From sequence record PV204681: a stretch of 64,000 bases of DNA, one strand, 5' to 3'. The first letter of the stretch is position 1, and the number at the start of each line of letters is the position of its first letter. A model generated the notes under the pieces. The model did not search any database, was not told the origin of the DNA, and saw only the letters and a program-made list of their open reading frames with translations. Source of the stretch: Escherichia phage vB_EcoM_JQD51. A program made the position numbers and the translations under genes. Shown here in pieces: positions 2,994-42,764 of the stretch.

Positions 2994-3217
2994 TATTTTA
3001 CTAAAGATTCAATATACTCGTGAAGAGCTTTAGTCGCTACTGCCCACTTATTCTGATATTCATTTTTCAGATTAGCACGAGACTGAACTAACAATCGGTC
3101 ATTAGTCGGAGGCAAAGATTCTAATCGTTGAATCTGGCGCCCATAAATCATAGCCGCCATTTCAGATTCATAGATAAGCCCTTTAATGTATTCATGTTGT
3201 TCTTTAGTCATTGGCAT
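2993..3217 (-). CDS. hypothetical protein (74 aa), pseT.1 position
   Basis: ORF track; GAGGA SD. Confidence 0.5.
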   Translation of the reverse strand: MPMTKEQHEYIKGLIYESEMAAMIYGRQIQRLESLPPTNDRLLVQSRANLKNEYQNKWAVATKALHEYIESLVK

Positions 3218-3498
3218 TTTTCCTCTTTTAAACCACTACGATAATAACATATCATAGTCTTCTGGTCATGTACATATCTTTTTACATCGTTTAACCAGAT
3301 ACGAAATTCTTGAGAGTCTTCAAACGGCATTCCAACCCACGGATTACCATCAATAACCTTTACTTGCCATTTCTGGTTATATTCAACAATAGATTCAGGC
3401 CATGGCGGATGTAAAGTTTCTTTAGGGCTTAAGGGCACATCCTGGGCACATCCAGCCAAAATACTAATAGATAATACAACTGCGGTTAATTTAATCAT
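3208..3498 (-). CDS. outer-membrane spanin (o-spanin lipoprotein), T4 PseT.2 position
   Basis: 96 aa; signal peptide with lipobox ILAGC; ATGA overlap with upstream i-spanin. Confidence 0.7.
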   Translation of the reverse strand: MIKLTAVVLSISILAGCAQDVPLSPKETLHPPWPESIVEYNQKWQVKVIDGNPWVGMPFEDSQEFRIWLNDVKRYVHDQKTMICYYRSGLKEEKCQ

Positions 3499-5554: not shown

Positions 5555-5584
5555 ATTGTACCACAATCCTTGTGGCATGTAAAC
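5555..5584 (-). promoter_or_regulatory. early promoter for rnlA
   Basis: Plus strand attgta -N18- gtaaac. Confidence 0.45.
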
Positions 5585-5994
5585 TACTTTTTCTTATGTT
5601 GGATATTCCAAGGCGGGTTGAACTTTTTGATAAAAAGCGGTTCTTCAAGGTCCATTGTTGCGATGGTCATTGAACCAAGTTCGTTGGTGACTGAAAGGTC
5701 AAAACATTGGCGGGCCCAGAATTCAACCTTTTTGCCTTGCATTAAGGCATCCAAAATCATAAGTGATTTTCTTGAATCTGAAGTCTGGTCTTTTCGATTT
5801 ATGGCTGTTCGATAATAGTTAATGCGTTTCTTTAAATTCTTGGTTTTACCAATATACACAAGTTCGTCATCTATAGCAATAGCGTATATGACATTTTTCT
5901 TATTAGGGACATCAACTGTTTTAATTGTTGCATCTTCTAATAGCTCCAATTCTGTATATTTAATAAAGGAATATTCGGCGGCAATATCTTTCAT
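5584..5994 (-). CDS. denA: endonuclease II (GIY-YIG)
   Basis: 136 aa; GIY-YIG motif (VIYAIAI...LVYIGKTKNLKKRINYY); between rnlA and nrdB as in T4. Confidence 0.8.
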   Translation of the reverse strand: MKDIAAEYSFIKYTELELLEDATIKTVDVPNKKNVIYAIAIDDELVYIGKTKNLKKRINYYRTAINRKDQTSDSRKSLMILDALMQGKKVEFWARQCFDLSVTNELGSMTIATMDLEEPLFIKKFNPPWNIQHKKK

Positions 5995-37514: not shown

Positions 37515-37554
37515 AAGCCTTATTAAAATTAAAATGAAGCTCCCGAAGGAGCTT
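37515..37554 (-). terminator. terminator-like hairpin after gene 39
   Basis: Minus-strand AAGCUCC-UUCG-GGAGCUU then CATTTTAATTTT; overlaps gene 39 stop. Confidence 0.5.
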
Positions 37555-39370
37555 AGGACATCCATTCTTTACGAAGTTCAGAATCATCACCCAACAACAT
37601 TTCAAAGAGTTCTTTCCAATTTTCAGGAAGTTTAACTACGTCGTACACAGGGTTCTGAATCATTTCACGATATTCTGACTTTTCAAGGGAGCCCAATCCC
37701 TTGATGTATCGAATACTATGCTTAGGCAGTGTATCTTTAGCTTCTTCATACTCAGCTACAGTATAAAACCATTTTTGAGTTTTGCCAATTTGTGCAATAA
37801 TTACAGGCGTTTTAACAAAGCGAATACGTCCTTGTTCAAACAATTCAGGCCAATTACTAAAGAAAGCAAGCAAAGCCGGATAAATACTTCCAAGACCGTC
37901 ATGATCAGCATCGGTCATAATTGCAATATTACGATAGTTCGTGTTCTCTGCCTTTTCACCAAGAATAAGACCTGTGATAGCACAGATATCAAAGAGCTCT
38001 TTGTTCTTCATCATATCAGCATATGACATACCCCAGCTATTCATCACCTTACCACGTAATGGGAATCCGCCGTGTAGTTCACGGTCACGAACATCAATGA
38101 GATAACCAATTGCCGAATCACCTTCTGTTAAGAACAATGTCGTATCTGCATCTTTACCACATTGGTTAGCTTTAATATGCTTATGAACCTTAGCTTTAGT
38201 TGCCTTTTTAGCTGCTTTAGTTTCTGCAGCCTTTTCTGCGGCCAATTTACGAGCTAATGCTGCTTCAACAATAGGCATAATCAAGGCTTCGTTTTTAAGA
38301 AGTGCCTGAGCAATTTTCTTAGCATCTAATTGGATATGATTACGAATATCACCATACGTTGACGTTAAACGTTCTTTAGTCTGAGAATCAAAACGCATGT
38401 TGCTCATGTCTCTAATAAACATCAACATTGTGAGACATTCTTTAACACGAGCTTTAGTGACTTCAATACCCTTATATTTCTTTTTAATGCCGGGCAAAAG
38501 ATGTTCGCAGATATCATCCATTACACATTCAACATGATGACCACCATTTTTAGTATGAATGTTATTCACATAAGTTAAATGACGGAAGCCGTCTGGTGAT
38601 GTTGTGAATGCTATAGAGACTTTATCATTTTCTTGAATGATGTTATCTTCACCAAATTGTTTAGCAAATCGTTTAAAATTACCATCAACCTTTTTACCAT
38701 TAAATGTGAACTTGATATCAGGATAAACGACTGCCAATGTTTGAAGTCGGTCTAAAGTAATATCTAAATAAATTTGAGATAAATTATGCTCTTCAAATGA
38801 AGAGAAATCAGGAGTGAAGATTACTTTAGTGCCTTTACCTTTAGATTTCTTAGAAGACCATGATTTGTTTTCCATTCCGTTTGAACAGTTAACAGTGATT
38901 TCATTTTCGCCATCTGACGTGATGCCTGTAAACAACGTAGAGAAGATATTAGTTAAACTACTCCCGACGCCGTTCATACCACCAGTCTTGCGTTCAGAGT
39001 CATCACCAAAGTTACCACCAGCCTTTGGAATAGTCCAGGCTGCTACAGGCCCAGGAATTTGTTCACCTGTTTGGTCGGTAACTAAACCTTGAGGAATACC
39101 ACGTCCGTTATCTTCCACTGAGACTTGATTATTTTTAATTTGCACATCAATTTTATTTGCAAACTTAAATGATGTACGAATAGCTTCATCAACCGAGTTG
39201 TCAATAATCTCATCGATTAATTTAACCAGACCAGGAACATATTCAACTTGTTGATATTTACCAAACAAAAAACGCTCGTGGGCTTCTTTAGCCGAAGATC
39301 CAATATACATACCACTACGTTTCTTAATATGTTCTACATCTGATAATACCTTAATTTCATTTTTAATCAT
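37553..39370 (-). CDS. 39: topoisomerase II large subunit gp39 (GyrB-like), unsplit 39+60 form
   Basis: 605 aa single ORF; GHKL ATPase motif EDNGRGIP; Toprim LTEGDSA; middle promoter upstream. Confidence 0.9.
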   Translation of the reverse strand: MIKNEIKVLSDVEHIKKRSGMYIGSSAKEAHERFLFGKYQQVEYVPGLVKLIDEIIDNSVDEAIRTSFKFANKIDVQIKNNQVSVEDNGRGIPQGLVTDQTGEQIPGPVAAWTIPKAGGNFGDDSERKTGGMNGVGSSLTNIFSTLFTGITSDGENEITVNCSNGMENKSWSSKKSKGKGTKVIFTPDFSSFEEHNLSQIYLDITLDRLQTLAVVYPDIKFTFNGKKVDGNFKRFAKQFGEDNIIQENDKVSIAFTTSPDGFRHLTYVNNIHTKNGGHHVECVMDDICEHLLPGIKKKYKGIEVTKARVKECLTMLMFIRDMSNMRFDSQTKERLTSTYGDIRNHIQLDAKKIAQALLKNEALIMPIVEAALARKLAAEKAAETKAAKKATKAKVHKHIKANQCGKDADTTLFLTEGDSAIGYLIDVRDRELHGGFPLRGKVMNSWGMSYADMMKNKELFDICAITGLILGEKAENTNYRNIAIMTDADHDGLGSIYPALLAFFSNWPELFEQGRIRFVKTPVIIAQIGKTQKWFYTVAEYEEAKDTLPKHSIRYIKGLGSLEKSEYREMIQNPVYDVVKLPENWKELFEMLLGDDSELRKEWMS

Positions 39371-39392
39371 GTTGTCTCCTCGTTATGAAGGT

Positions 39393-39419
39393 ATTCTATC
39401 ATCCGAAATCTAAAGCAAA
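39393..39419 (-). promoter_or_regulatory. MotA-dependent middle promoter for gene 39
   Basis: Minus strand reads TTTGCTTTA (MotA box), 12 nt spacer, TAGAAT. Confidence 0.5.
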
Positions 39420-39435
39420 AAGGGCCGAAGCCCTT
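39405..39435 (-). terminator. terminator-like hairpin upstream of gene 39, overlapping its MotA box
   Basis: Minus-strand AAGGGC-UUCG-GCCCUU then TTTTTGCTTT. Confidence 0.5.
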
Positions 39436-39859
39436 ATTTAAATTTAATTTTCTGAAGTGCATCAATTGCAGCCAAACGCCCTTGTTCACTTTTAACTGTA
39501 ATGACCACATCGCCTGATACGATCACCGAACCGTCAACAAATTCTACAGAGCCTTTTTTGAAATCGACAGCTGTATCTGGTTCTTGAACTTCTTCAAAGA
39601 ATTTAAATTCTGCACCATAAAGCAGAATATCACCTTGCATACTATGAATAGTTCGGCCATAATCGCCTACAGCTTCTACAGCAATCACAGAAACGCCGTA
39701 ACCAATCATCTCTTCCACAATAAAATCTTTGGACAATAAAGTAGTATGCAGATTAGTATTAAGACGTTTACCAGTCGTATTAAGAATTCTCAAGAAATTA
39801 TCTTCCTGTCCTTTGATAATACGATATTTCTTACCAACTTCAAAACCTTTAAAAGCCAT
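39434..39859 (-). CDS. hypothetical protein (141 aa)
   Basis: ORF track; AAGGG SD. Confidence 0.5.
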   Translation of the reverse strand: MAFKGFEVGKKYRIIKGQEDNFLRILNTTGKRLNTNLHTTLLSKDFIVEEMIGYGVSVIAVEAVGDYGRTIHSMQGDILLYGAEFKFFEEVQEPDTAVDFKKGSVEFVDGSVIVSGDVVITVKSEQGRLAAIDALQKIKFK

Positions 39860-39861
39860 AA

Positions 39862-40041
39862 TTAACCCTTCTTAAGTAAGTCGTAAAAACCACCGTTCAC
39901 ATGTTTAGGAGCAGAAACTCGACGAGTAGACAGACGATGACATTCAGGGCAAACATCGTTTTCTCGTTCAGAAATCCTTTTAATTTTTTCATATTCATGA
40001 CCGCAATCTTCAGATTGGCATTTATAGTCGTATAACGGCAT
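39862..40041 (-). CDS. FmdB-family zinc-ribbon protein (59 aa)
   Basis: Hand-read (below ORF-track cutoff): MPLYDYKCQSEDCGHEYEKIKRISERENDVCPECHRLSTRRVSAPKHVNGGFYDLLKKG; CxxC...CxxC; TAAGGAA SD; fits exactly between two tracked ORFs. Confidence 0.5.
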   Translation of the reverse strand: MPLYDYKCQSEDCGHEYEKIKRISERENDVCPECHRLSTRRVSAPKHVNGGFYDLLKKG

Positions 40042-40043
40042 TA

Positions 40044-40454
40044 TTATTCCTTAAAATGTGCTTTCAGCATTTGATACAAAGACCATGCCTGGTCATTATT
40101 TTCGATAGTAATCGTCATCACAGGAAATTCAGACAATTCACCAAGTTCACCAGAATCTTGCTCTTCAGACGCTTGATATGGATTTTCAACTTCGTCAAAG
40201 AACTCTGCTTCATTCGTGGAGAGCCAGATAAAGTTTTCATCAAGGATATCACCGCCTGTTGCGTATCCAACCGTGCCAGTAGATGTTAAAATTTTAGTAG
40301 GACGTCCGAGATGGTCAACATCTAAAATTTTAAAAGGTTCCATGCCAAGACGTCGTGCATAAATCCCATTAACAGTGTGGTCTTTAATAAACTCTTCTTG
40401 GGCACGTTTATCTATAAATTGGTACCATGAGTTAACGCGGAATTTATTAGCCAT
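40044..40454 (-). CDS. hypothetical protein (136 aa)
   Basis: Track ORF (TTG start) trimmed to [11 protein letters not shown]... with GGAAGGAAA SD. Confidence 0.5.
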
Positions 40455-40681
40455 TAGTAAGTTTCCTTCCAATAAGTTGTACCATTTTCAGTGATTTCAC
40501 GGAAGATGCCATAGATAGGCATTTCATCACCAAGTTTTTCGTAAACGTAAACCACTTCGGTGTAGCATAAAAATTCGGTCCAGTTTTTCTGTACAACAAC
40601 TAAATCAGGATTAAACAGAACATCTTCAAACTCATCGATGTTTGAATCAGTAGTTACGTTTTTAATGATTTGACGTTTCAT
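40454..40681 (-). CDS. hypothetical protein (75 aa)
   Basis: Track ORF trimmed to internal ATG with GAGGAGA SD, because a promoter lies inside the longer ORF. Confidence 0.4.
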
Positions 40682-40738
40682 AATATTCTCCTCTTGTTTT
40701 GATAAGTCTATAGTATCATAGACCATAGTTGTTGTACA

Positions 40739-41263
40739 TCATTTTAGCAAAATAAAATCAACTTGTTCTGCCAATGAACGTCTAAACATTAATTGACAAC
40801 TTCCGAGGATGAAATCAGGTGCTTCATAGACCGCGATGTAGTATCCTTTAGCTTTCAAGAGTTCAACATCCACCTGGTCATCAAACCATGCATAAACCGC
40901 GTCAACGCTTTCAAATCCAAAATAGAACCCTTGAGCCCAATCTTCACTCAATTCAAATGTGTACTCAATTCTATGGTATCTTAAGATATTTTGTTCAAGA
41001 AGTTTGTCTTCATTTACTGTAGGACGATTAGGGACATTATAGTTGTCGCCGTGATGGTAGAAGTTACCTGAGAGTATTCCATGCTTATCAAGGAACTCCC
41101 ATGTTTCTTCAGAGTTGTCAGTGCCAGACCAACCGTAAGGTGAGCGAGGTTCTTTATTCCAAGAGGTTTCCCAAATTCTGACGGCTTTACCATCTTCGAT
41201 AGCAATTCCTGGTAATGATTCACGTTGAGTACAAAAACTACGTTCTACTCGGTAAACTAACAT
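40739..41263 (-). CDS. hypothetical protein (174 aa)
   Basis: ORF track; GAGGAGA SD; early promoter upstream. Confidence 0.5.
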   Translation of the reverse strand: MLVYRVERSFCTQRESLPGIAIEDGKAVRIWETSWNKEPRSPYGWSGTDNSEETWEFLDKHGILSGNFYHHGDNYNVPNRPTVNEDKLLEQNILRYHRIEYTFELSEDWAQGFYFGFESVDAVYAWFDDQVDVELLKAKGYYIAVYEAPDFILGSCQLMFRRSLAEQVDFILLK

Positions 41264-41322
41264 ATTATTCTCCTCTGGTTGATATGGTTATAATATCAAA
41301 ACCAGAGGAGAAGTAAACAACT

Positions 41323-41742
41323 TTATGCGAAAGCAGCTGGGCTATATTTTTTAATTTGGAATTCAGGAACTACCATGAACTGACCAGCGAAAACGATGTT
41401 ATAAAGCTTAACACCATCTTCTACCCAACGGTCGCTAATAAATCCGGCGATTTGCTTAGTTTTCCATGGCGTTCCATCAGTTGCCGCAGCAATAGTGAAT
41501 TCATGGTCTTTTTCAACAGAAACTGATCTGCATAGTCCCCATTTGAACGCTTTTTCTTCTGGCTCAATGAACTGGCTTGAGACGTAGCCAATATTACCAT
41601 TAGCATCACGAACTTTAACTTGGTTACGACCAAAAACCGGATCACTCACAGAAAGAACTTCAACCAACTTCCCGGCAACTTTAGAGCGAGAAGCAACAGA
41701 TACATATACGTAATCACCTGTAGAGAGATTTACAATATTCAT
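41323..41742 (-). CDS. hypothetical protein, paralog family member 1 (139 aa)
   Basis: C-terminal GFISDRWVEDGVKLYNIVFAGQFMVV shared with the next two ORFs; TAAGGAA SD. Confidence 0.55.
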   Translation of the reverse strand: MNIVNLSTGDYVYVSVASRSKVAGKLVEVLSVSDPVFGRNQVKVRDANGNIGYVSSQFIEPEEKAFKWGLCRSVSVEKDHEFTIAAATDGTPWKTKQIAGFISDRWVEDGVKLYNIVFAGQFMVVPEFQIKKYSPAAFA

Positions 41743-41751
41743 AATAATTCC

Positions 41752-42207
41752 TTAAGCTTTACGAGGAGACACATAGCGAGTGATTTCGGATTCTTTAACA
41801 ACTCGGAAGTCACCTAAGAATACGATATTGTATAACTTTTCACCATCTTCAACCCATTGGTCACTGATGAAGCCGCACATAATATCAGTTTTGTTTGGAT
41901 AACCATATTCGTCGATGAAATCAAATTCTTTATCAGTCCGGAATTCAACGCCTTTGCAAAGGGCCCATTTGAACTGTACATTAGGTTCAGTAGAAGCAAA
42001 ATGAGCGCTCACATGAGTTTCCAAGAATTTAGGACTTACGTAAGCGTACTGAGTTTCAGTTTTTCCAGAACTAGGAATGATTCGAACTTTAACTTCTTTA
42101 ACACGTCCAGTACCATTAGTACGAAGTCCTACCACTTCAACTAGACGACCTGCAGCTTTAGAACGAGATGCAGACGATACACGCTTAATTTCACCAATAG
42201 TAATCAT
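41752..42207 (-). CDS. hypothetical protein, paralog family member 2 (151 aa)
   Basis: Track ORF trimmed to MITIGEIKRVSSASRSKAAG (aligns with paralog 1 N-terminus); C-terminal GFISDQWVEDGEKLYNIVFLGDFRVV. Confidence 0.55.
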   Translation of the reverse strand: MITIGEIKRVSSASRSKAAGRLVEVVGLRTNGTGRVKEVKVRIIPSSGKTETQYAYVSPKFLETHVSAHFASTEPNVQFKWALCKGVEFRTDKEFDFIDEYGYPNKTDIMCGFISDQWVEDGEKLYNIVFLGDFRVVKESEITRYVSPRKA

Positions 42208-42237
42208 AATTTCTCTCTCTTTGTTTAAATTGAATTC

Positions 42238-42267
42238 ATTATACTCCATCCATCCTTGGATGTACAA
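42238..42267 (-). promoter_or_regulatory. early promoter upstream of paralog 2
   Basis: Plus strand attata -N18- gtacaa. Confidence 0.4.
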
Positions 42268-42269
42268 CA

Positions 42270-42764
42270 TTAATTAAGGATATTAACCACAGCACTACGT
42301 GGAACTACACTAAAATCACCTGCATGAACAACGTTCAGAAGTTCAACACCGTCTTCAATCCACTGATCAGTTACCCATCCATTTACTGGACCTGCGAACG
42401 GACGTCGAATTGAAACATATTTACACAACAAATCAGTAGGCTCAATAGGCTTAATCAGAGTACCGTACATACAAGCGATATCCATATCAATACAGATATC
42501 TTTAACGGGTTCTACTTCTTCAATCAACAGTTCAAAGTCGGTGCTTGGAAGGGCGGTAGTAGAAATTGTACCATATGAATTTTTAATTTCTAAGAATAAC
42601 CAAGGGCCTTCAACTTGTTTGATGAAGTTAACAATAGTGAAACTATTACCTTGAGTGGCACCTAAAATTTCACAAAACTTTTCATAAGCTCGCACTGAAG
42701 CACCATACCAGTTGATTTGTTTTTCATCTTTCAGGATGTAAGTAGCCGTTGTATTGATATTCAT
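42270..42764 (-). CDS. hypothetical protein, paralog family member 3 (164 aa)
   Basis: Track ORF trimmed to internal ATG downstream of its promoter; C-terminal GWVTDQWIEDGVELLNVVHAGDFSVV. Confidence 0.55.
   Translation of the reverse strand: MNINTTATYILKDEKQINWYGASVRAYEKFCEILGATQGNSFTIVNFIKQVEGPWLFLEIKNSYGTISTTALPSTDFELLIEEVEPVKDICIDMDIACMYGTLIKPIEPTDLLCKYVSIRRPFAGPVNGWVTDQWIEDGVELLNVVHAGDFSVVPRSAVVNILN

Follow-up and report, generated by a model that had tools for sequence, protein, structure and literature searches.

Small zinc-ribbon proteins of the FmdB family (PF09723, Zn_ribbon_8; TIGR02605, CxxC_CxxC_SSSS; COG2331) occur in both bacteria and phages. Bacterial members, which are encoded in a cellular housekeeping context, start with M-P-x-Y-x-Y-x-C, carry two Cys knuckles (a CxxC first knuckle and a 'CP.C' second knuckle) followed by a G-x-G-[FW]-[YF] motif, and end in a Ser/Gly-rich low-complexity C-terminus. 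The domain was listed among putative essential domains in one Burkholderia Tn-seq study (PMC8770471). The closest described phage member is gene 39.2 of phage T4, whose database entries are UniProt Q01434 ('uncharacterized 5.1 kDa protein'), RefSeq NP_049623 ('FmdB-like transcriptional regulator') and phrog_1076. In T4, 39.2 belongs to the transcripts classed as early, and a proteome followed over time did not reveal the protein (PMC9697503 Table S2). Knock-down by CRISPRi-ART gave a 'Not Fit' call for T4 39.2 (score 0.08, p 0.26), as it did for goF, cef, and 39.1 (PMC11879866 supplement). Furthermore, deletion of goF is harmless, and the GoF protein has an LSm-like fold (PMC12152347).

Here, we analysed a stretch of 64,000 nucleotides from Escherichia phage vB_EcoM_JQD51 (PV204681; hereafter the window), in which a small FmdB-type gene had been predicted from the letters alone. 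The open reading frame (ORF) was present as described and lies on the minus strand, which the original prediction had left unstated. It comprises 59 codons from ATG to TAA, and its translation, MPLYDYKCQSEDCGHEYEKIKRISERENDVCPECHRLSTRRVSAPKHVNGGFYDLLKKG, is as quoted there. The minus-strand sequence upstream of it reads TTTTAAGGAATAATAATG. The TAAGGAA Shine-Dalgarno named in the prediction was also found, and it overlaps the 3' end of goF, namely its last codons (AAG GAA) and TAA stop (40046..40044). The same junction, AAGGAATAAT.ATG, is present in T4. The ORF had been said to fit exactly between two others, and the gap proved to be 2 nt on either side, from the end of goF (40044) to the ORF and from its stop to the downstream ATG (39859). 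The gene is thus packed tightly into its locus, and the strong Shine-Dalgarno that lies within the end of goF probably drives its translation. On the other hand, several spurious ORFs of 30-50 aa in the ORF listing overlap the same stretch, so that ORF length alone is no evidence for a gene. Coordinates of the features discussed below are collected in Table 1.

Table 1. Features of the zinc-ribbon gene and its surroundings, ordered along the minus strand (positions are those of the window).
Feature	Position	Strand	Basis or remark
cef (modifier of suppressor tRNAs)	40454..40726	minus	Pfam PF24050 T4_Cef 5.5e-34; synteny
goF orthologue (LSm-like-fold family), directly upstream	40044..40454	minus	phmmer 1.4e-67 to T4 goF; phrog_622 4e-38
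Shine-Dalgarno TAAGGAA	40053..40047	minus	within goF 3' end; 6 nt 5' of zinc-ribbon ATG
59-aa zinc-ribbon CDS, T4 39.2 orthologue	39862..40041, stop included	minus	ORF listing, PF09723, TIGR02605, phrog_1076
First predicted zinc knuckle, Cys8 (40020..40018) and Cys13 (40005..40003), C-x4-C	40003..40020	minus	codons read
Second predicted zinc knuckle CPEC, Cys31 (39951..39949) and Cys34 (39942..39940)	39940..39951	minus	codons read
Invariant C-terminal tail, residues 43-56, SAPKHVNGGFYDLL	39874..39915	minus	9 T4-like variants compared
141-aa goF-family paralogue, directly downstream, in T4 39.1 slot	39434..39859	minus	phrog_622 9e-22
GC-rich hairpin with UUCG loop, then T tract	39420..39435	minus	terminator scan
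Large subunit of DNA topoisomerase II (605 aa, 39+60 fusion)	37553..39370	minus	ORF listing; F2/T4 annotation

The assignment to the FmdB family, made originally from the sequence alone, was borne out by curated profiles. The product matched PF09723 with 49.3 bits (gathering cut-off 34.4, E=5e-13) and TIGR02605, the NCBIfam model named FmdB family zinc ribbon protein, with 48.0 bits (cut-off 31.3, E=9e-13); it also matched phrog_1076. As a word-indexed protein search is insensitive for a 59-aa query and returned 8 close relatives, we opted to use an exhaustive HMMER search, which gave 252 matches and from which 72 members were taken for the family alignment. In a collection of 50,697 phage records, tblastn detected homologues in 955, with an identity of ≥99% in 134. 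Related phages retain both the ORF and its four Cys residues, so that the lack of conservation named in advance as a refutation did not appear; a homologue search among T4-like phages, which had been proposed as a check, recovered orthologues. We then estimated selection from 20 distinct nucleotide alleles from T4-like loci by the Nei-Gojobori method. dN/dS was 0.01-0.17 wherever dS could be estimated, with synonymous sites often saturated. The allele of strain T4 GT7 differs from that of the window by 24 synonymous and 13 non-synonymous changes (dN/dS 0.057), and five close alleles differ by 2-6 synonymous and no non-synonymous changes. A scan of 38500-41500 against Rfam gave no RNA family match and hence no sign of a structured RNA hidden in the ORF. 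A search of the 64-kb window for a second FmdB-family member found none. The 59-codon ORF is therefore a real, strongly conserved gene under purifying selection.

Phylogenetic relatives also settle the identity of the gene. Its surroundings are 97-98% identical at the DNA level to many Tequatrovirus genomes, and an identical protein (100%) is annotated in RefSeq as "FmdB-like transcriptional regulator" of Escherichia phage F2 (YP_010068870.1). T4 gene 39.2 holds the same position, within the cef-goF-39.2 string upstream of topoisomerase gene 39, and residues 1-57 share 82.5% identity with the 58-aa product in T4 strain GT7. Both the Cys pattern and the invariant tail are common to the T4 and window proteins. 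The gene is the orthologue of T4 early gene 39.2, a known gene already placed in the FmdB/Zn_ribbon_8 family. The expectation that it would be easy to miss did not hold, given that many phage records in GenBank and RefSeq annotate it, among them that of the identical protein.

One difference from T4 lies in the reference sequence itself. The T4 reference lists 39.2 as a "5.1 kDa protein" of 45 aa, compared with 59 aa in the window, because of a 1-nt insertion in the legacy sequence: an extra T (GCTTCC versus GCTCC) shifts the frame just before the conserved tail. In T4 GT7 (KJ477686; the stretch compared is locus 1501-1940), 39.2 has 58 aa and ends in ...SAPKHVNGGFYDLLKG. Within the protein collection, the 45-aa form has a cluster to itself. 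Further, a 301-nt stretch of the reference (NC_000866, locus 5560-5860) is 99.7-100% identical only to the legacy records M89919, AF158101, and X06220, whereas its identity to each of the modern T4 re-sequencings listed (among them T4T, KJ477684-6, MT984581, OL964735, and OZ209023) is 95.4%, with two indels. A frameshift likewise cuts gene 39.1 to 65 aa in the reference, compared with 86 aa in GT7 (KJ477686, locus 1680-1940); the modern sequences encode the 58-aa and 86-aa products. These comparisons suggest that the truncations in NC_000866 are probably a legacy sequencing error inherited from M89919. Full-length T4 39.1 starts with MKYINRSIAALVLAVSLIGC, which resembles a lipoprotein signal peptide with a lipobox; T4 39.1 may thus be an exported lipoprotein, a signal that the truncated entry has hidden. 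For work on the two T4 genes, the 58-aa form of 39.2 and the 86-aa form of 39.1 should be taken in place of the truncated reference entries. This also bears on expression data. The proteome search in T4 appears to have used the truncated 45-aa entry and, given that so small a protein yields few tryptic peptides as well, the non-detection of 39.2 carries little weight. Candidate mass-spectrometry peptides of the 58/59-aa form include ISERENDVCPECHR and HVNGGFYDLLK.

The locus has the arrangement of its T4-like relatives. On the minus strand, the order is cef, goF, the zinc-ribbon gene, a goF paralogue, a hairpin, and the fused topoisomerase gene, which corresponds to the T4-type order of cef, goF, 39.2, a variable gene, a terminator, and gene 39. 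The cef-goF-39.2 order was found by phmmer synteny in 21 of the 21 T4-like loci examined. Mechanical ORF listing started goF at a TTG at 40472, inside cef; the start followed here is that of the RefSeq homologue, the ATG at 40454. This ATG overlaps the cef stop by one base (TAATG), which is the usual T4-type coupling. The slot downstream of 39.2 is variable among T4-like phages: in T4 it is occupied by 39.1, whereas in the window it holds the goF paralogue, which is found in some T4-like loci and is absent in T4. The paralogue and goF showed only a weak local match by BLASTP. In the window phage, two goF-family genes therefore flank the zinc-ribbon gene. The UUCG hairpin is likely the terminator of a cef-goF-39.2-paralogue transcription unit, as judged from its sequence; T4 has an analogous hairpin after 39.1. 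The topoisomerase gene is a 39+60 fusion without the mobA/60.1 insertion and without the translational bypass region of T4 gene 60. Promoter-like sites in the region were not above shuffle expectation, and so no promoter is named. PADLOC gave no defence-system family match for the zinc-ribbon gene or its neighbours. Elsewhere on the minus strand (41323-42270), adjacent ORFs of 139 and 172 aa have a common C-terminal half (...ISDRWVEDG.KLYNIVF.G.F.VV.E..I..Y) and resemble a tandem duplication; in phage F2, the corresponding genes carry the annotation 'MotB-like transcriptional regulator'.

The product has a mass of 6.9 kDa, a pI of 7.7, and a net charge of +0.7, with the charge distributed unevenly: residues 1-34 contain 5 K/R and 9 D/E, compared with 6 K/R and 1 D/E in residues 35-59. 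Its N-terminus, MPLYDYKC (residues 1-8), follows the family motif, in which M1, P2, Y4, Y6, and C8 are each conserved in ≥90% of the 72 aligned members. The four Cys residues form the two knuckles typical of the family; Cys8, Cys13, and Cys31 are conserved in ≥90% of the members and Cys34 in 100%. Unlike the CxxC of bacterial members, the first knuckle (CQSEDC) has C-x4-C spacing, a variant that other members of the alignment also have (e.g., P0015, P0031, and P0109), while the second knuckle follows the bacterial pattern. GGFY at residues 50-53 fits the downstream family motif, represented in bacterial members by KGSGFY, KGSGWY, and GGGWF. The spacer before GGFY is shorter than in bacterial members, and the HMM alignment consequently ends at position 42 of 52. 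The Ser/Gly-rich 'SSSS' C-terminus of the bacterial proteins is missing from the window protein, which ends in ...GGFYDLLKKG. Nevertheless, many short members of the alignment lack it as well, and the region does not define the domain.

We next considered the predicted structure. AlphaFold2, run with the 72-member alignment, gave a mean pLDDT of 80.6 (approximately 88 for residues 1-40 and 58-69 for residues 41-59) and a model with four beta strands that form a classical zinc ribbon. Fold matches were not significant. One Zn2+ is predicted to be bound by Cys8, Cys13, Cys31, and Cys34. Across nine distinct protein variants from T4-like phages, no position varied within residues 43-56, compared with 13 variable positions in residues 1-42. 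The tail, modelled with low confidence, is thus the most constrained part of the protein, a pattern typical of docking motifs. Small four-stranded Cys4 ribbons are known from solved structures of generic adaptors, such as the RNA polymerase subunit Rpb12/RpoP, the ribosomal proteins bL33/bL32, actinobacterial RbpA, and the MCM zinc module, where the ribbon serves as a protein- or nucleic-acid-binding handle.

Outside the T4-like phages, family members occur in varied surroundings. In Krischvirus ECD7 the order is dexA, 39.2, and topoisomerase, and the Muldoonvirus copy sits after a MazG-like gene. Serratia phage IME250 (KY073123, Ackermannviridae) has a homologue of 37% identity (locus 2501-2746), whose gene immediately precedes the late-transcription accessory gene gp33, with gp32 two genes further on. 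GenBank annotates its start at 2621, but tblastn similarity begins 120 nt earlier, at 2501, so that the true start may lie further upstream than annotated. In six IMG/VR contigs (locus approximately 3001-3430), proteins of 78-141 aa with a MPLYDYKC zinc-ribbon N-terminus are encoded directly after the portal gene, which indicates that the zinc-ribbon module is also used in head-morphogenesis clusters. Other longer members in uncultivated viral contigs adjoin genes for capsid, DNA ligase, ribonucleotide reductase, UvdE, or DenV-like proteins. For bacteria, we retrieved 80 loci using one bacterial family member as query, and no single conserved neighbour gene emerged among them, the largest neighbour cluster covering 7 of the 80 loci. 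The gene neighbourhoods are inconsistent across phages and hence point to no single pathway.

Taken together, we consider a zinc-stabilised mini-adaptor that docks through its tail to be the best reading, and we hold it with moderate confidence. The analysis shows the identity of the gene, its family, its conservation, the purifying selection on it, and the predicted fold of its product, whereas the binding of zinc, the action as an adaptor, and the part played by the tail are inferred. The product of early gene 39.2 would fold as a four-stranded zinc ribbon over residues 1-40, and this acidic ribbon would carry a basic, probably flexible C-terminal tail. Such a protein would have no catalytic activity. 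The zinc ribbon would serve as a rigid handle, while the tail SAPKHVNGGFYDLL would dock on a macromolecular partner (RNA, or a protein of host or phage) as the phage begins to take over the host. On laboratory E. coli such a role would be dispensable, but in nature selection would maintain it. Early transcription and the absence of a fitness effect are carried over from the T4 literature (PMC9697503, PMC11879866) and may apply to the window phage by analogy. Because model confidence is low there, the tail might just as well form a strand packed against the ribbon, in place of a docking motif. The other readings, set out below, are less likely or poorly supported compared with the adaptor.

A rival reading draws on the flanking genes. 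The zinc-ribbon protein might act together with the LSm-like-fold GoF proteins as a post-transcriptional modulator of mRNA or tRNA, made in stoichiometric amounts through translational coupling. In all 21 of the T4-like loci examined, goF is the immediate upstream neighbour at a distance of 2 nt and contains the Shine-Dalgarno; in the window, the second goF-family gene follows after another 2-nt spacer. Next in line is cef, with its role in tRNA maturation. Moreover, GoF has an LSm-like fold, and expression driven by the leader of gene 41 is higher with the GoF(D25Y) mutant (PMC12152347). However, the T4-like gene order is conserved by descent, which makes adjacency weak evidence. Neither goF nor cef lies between the genes of the Krischvirus ECD7 locus, the Muldoonvirus copy has its own different neighbour, and the FmdB family is far more widespread than goF. 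The GoF paper makes no mention of 39.2 (PMC12152347). We regard a GoF partnership as possible but unlikely.

A DNA-binding transcriptional regulator that binds phage or host promoters early in infection is what the database name 'FmdB-like transcriptional regulator' implies, and the original prediction had similarly put forward a nucleic-acid-binding candidate regulator. We found no support for this. The name is an inherited 'putative regulatory protein' label, COG lists the FmdB family as uncharacterised, and the literature searched contained no experimental work on any FmdB-family protein and no characterised member. The protein has no helix-turn-helix and is near-neutral, and its fold matches lack significance. 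The heterogeneous gene contexts also argue against a regulator, with phage homologues behind portal or capsid genes and beside those for ligase, ribonucleotide reductase, UvdE, and DenV-like proteins, and bacterial homologues beside housekeeping genes. A regulatory role is therefore rather unlikely, and the label "transcriptional regulator" is not to be trusted.

Bacterial neighbours offered a further lead. Immediate neighbours of the family gene numbered 149 in 78 bacterial loci from many phyla, and at least 10 of them encode aminoacyl-tRNA synthetases of at least five specificities (class Ib, 3; CysRS, 2; class IIb, 2; Ile/Met-type, 2; and AspRS, read directly in Leminorella), and a further 3 of the 149 encode D-Tyr-tRNA deacylases (Dtd). 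Synthetase and deacylase neighbours together number at least 13 of 149 compared with approximately 1.3 expected (binomial P ~1e-9), but the loci are phylogenetically non-independent and the gene calls naive, so that this excess is a lead and not a result. Locus L145 (4001-6043) is an example of such an arrangement, and in Leminorella grimontii, the FmdB-family gene lies 13 nt upstream of aspS. It is conceivable, albeit improbable, that mini zinc ribbons including T4 39.2 are adaptors of the tRNA-aminoacylation or translation machinery. If true, the phage protein would dock via its invariant GGFYDLL tail on a host synthetase or tRNA-handling factor. The position of 39.2 two genes from cef, which acts in tRNA maturation, in T4-like phages would fit this. 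A possible precedent is the T4 Vs protein, which modifies the host valyl-tRNA synthetase. A DNA-level search of E. coli genomes for a 39.2 homologue gave no match, which at that level is no proof that the host lacks one.

The neighbouring topoisomerase gene invites comparison with YacG, a small zinc-finger inhibitor of DNA gyrase in E. coli. Like 39.2, YacG is a tiny Cys4 protein; its C-terminal tail is functional, and that of 39.2, which is encoded near a GyrB-like gene, looks functional. Given that the gene immediately after 39.2 in Krischvirus ECD7 encodes the topoisomerase large subunit, and that a single gene separates the two in Tequatroviruses, 39.2 might modulate a type II topoisomerase (phage gp39/52/60 or host gyrase) in a YacG-like manner. 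YacG is, however, a treble-clef finger and not a ribbon, and neither a sequence-family nor a fold match to YacG was found for the zinc-ribbon protein. This function appears quite improbable.

A thiol-disulfide redox centre in place of a structural zinc site is very improbable: rare family members have selenocysteine in a CxxU motif, for which a thiol-redox role was proposed (PMC2398784, PMC9312934), but the GOS marine survey counted 2 Sec forms against 807 Cys forms (PMC2398784), the four Cys residues lie in two knuckles of the modelled zinc-ribbon fold, the first pair is C-x4-C and not the redox-typical CxxC, and the protein is cytoplasmic and very small. Finally, a chance ORF is excluded; the ORF is short, lies in an AT-rich region rich in spurious ORFs, and has a T4 counterpart for which no peptide was detected, but its profile scores, its conservation across phage records, the strong purifying selection with saturated synonymous change, the ideal Shine-Dalgarno spacing, and the exact gene packing refute that explanation.

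As a discovery, the gene matters little, as it was already known; the interest remains in the function of 39.2 and of the very large family to which it belongs. Gene 39.2 is not needed in the laboratory but is subject to very strong purifying selection, and in this it appears to be typical of accessory host-takeover genes. The family spans many bacterial phyla and phage lineages, and T4 genetics could give it its first functional handle.
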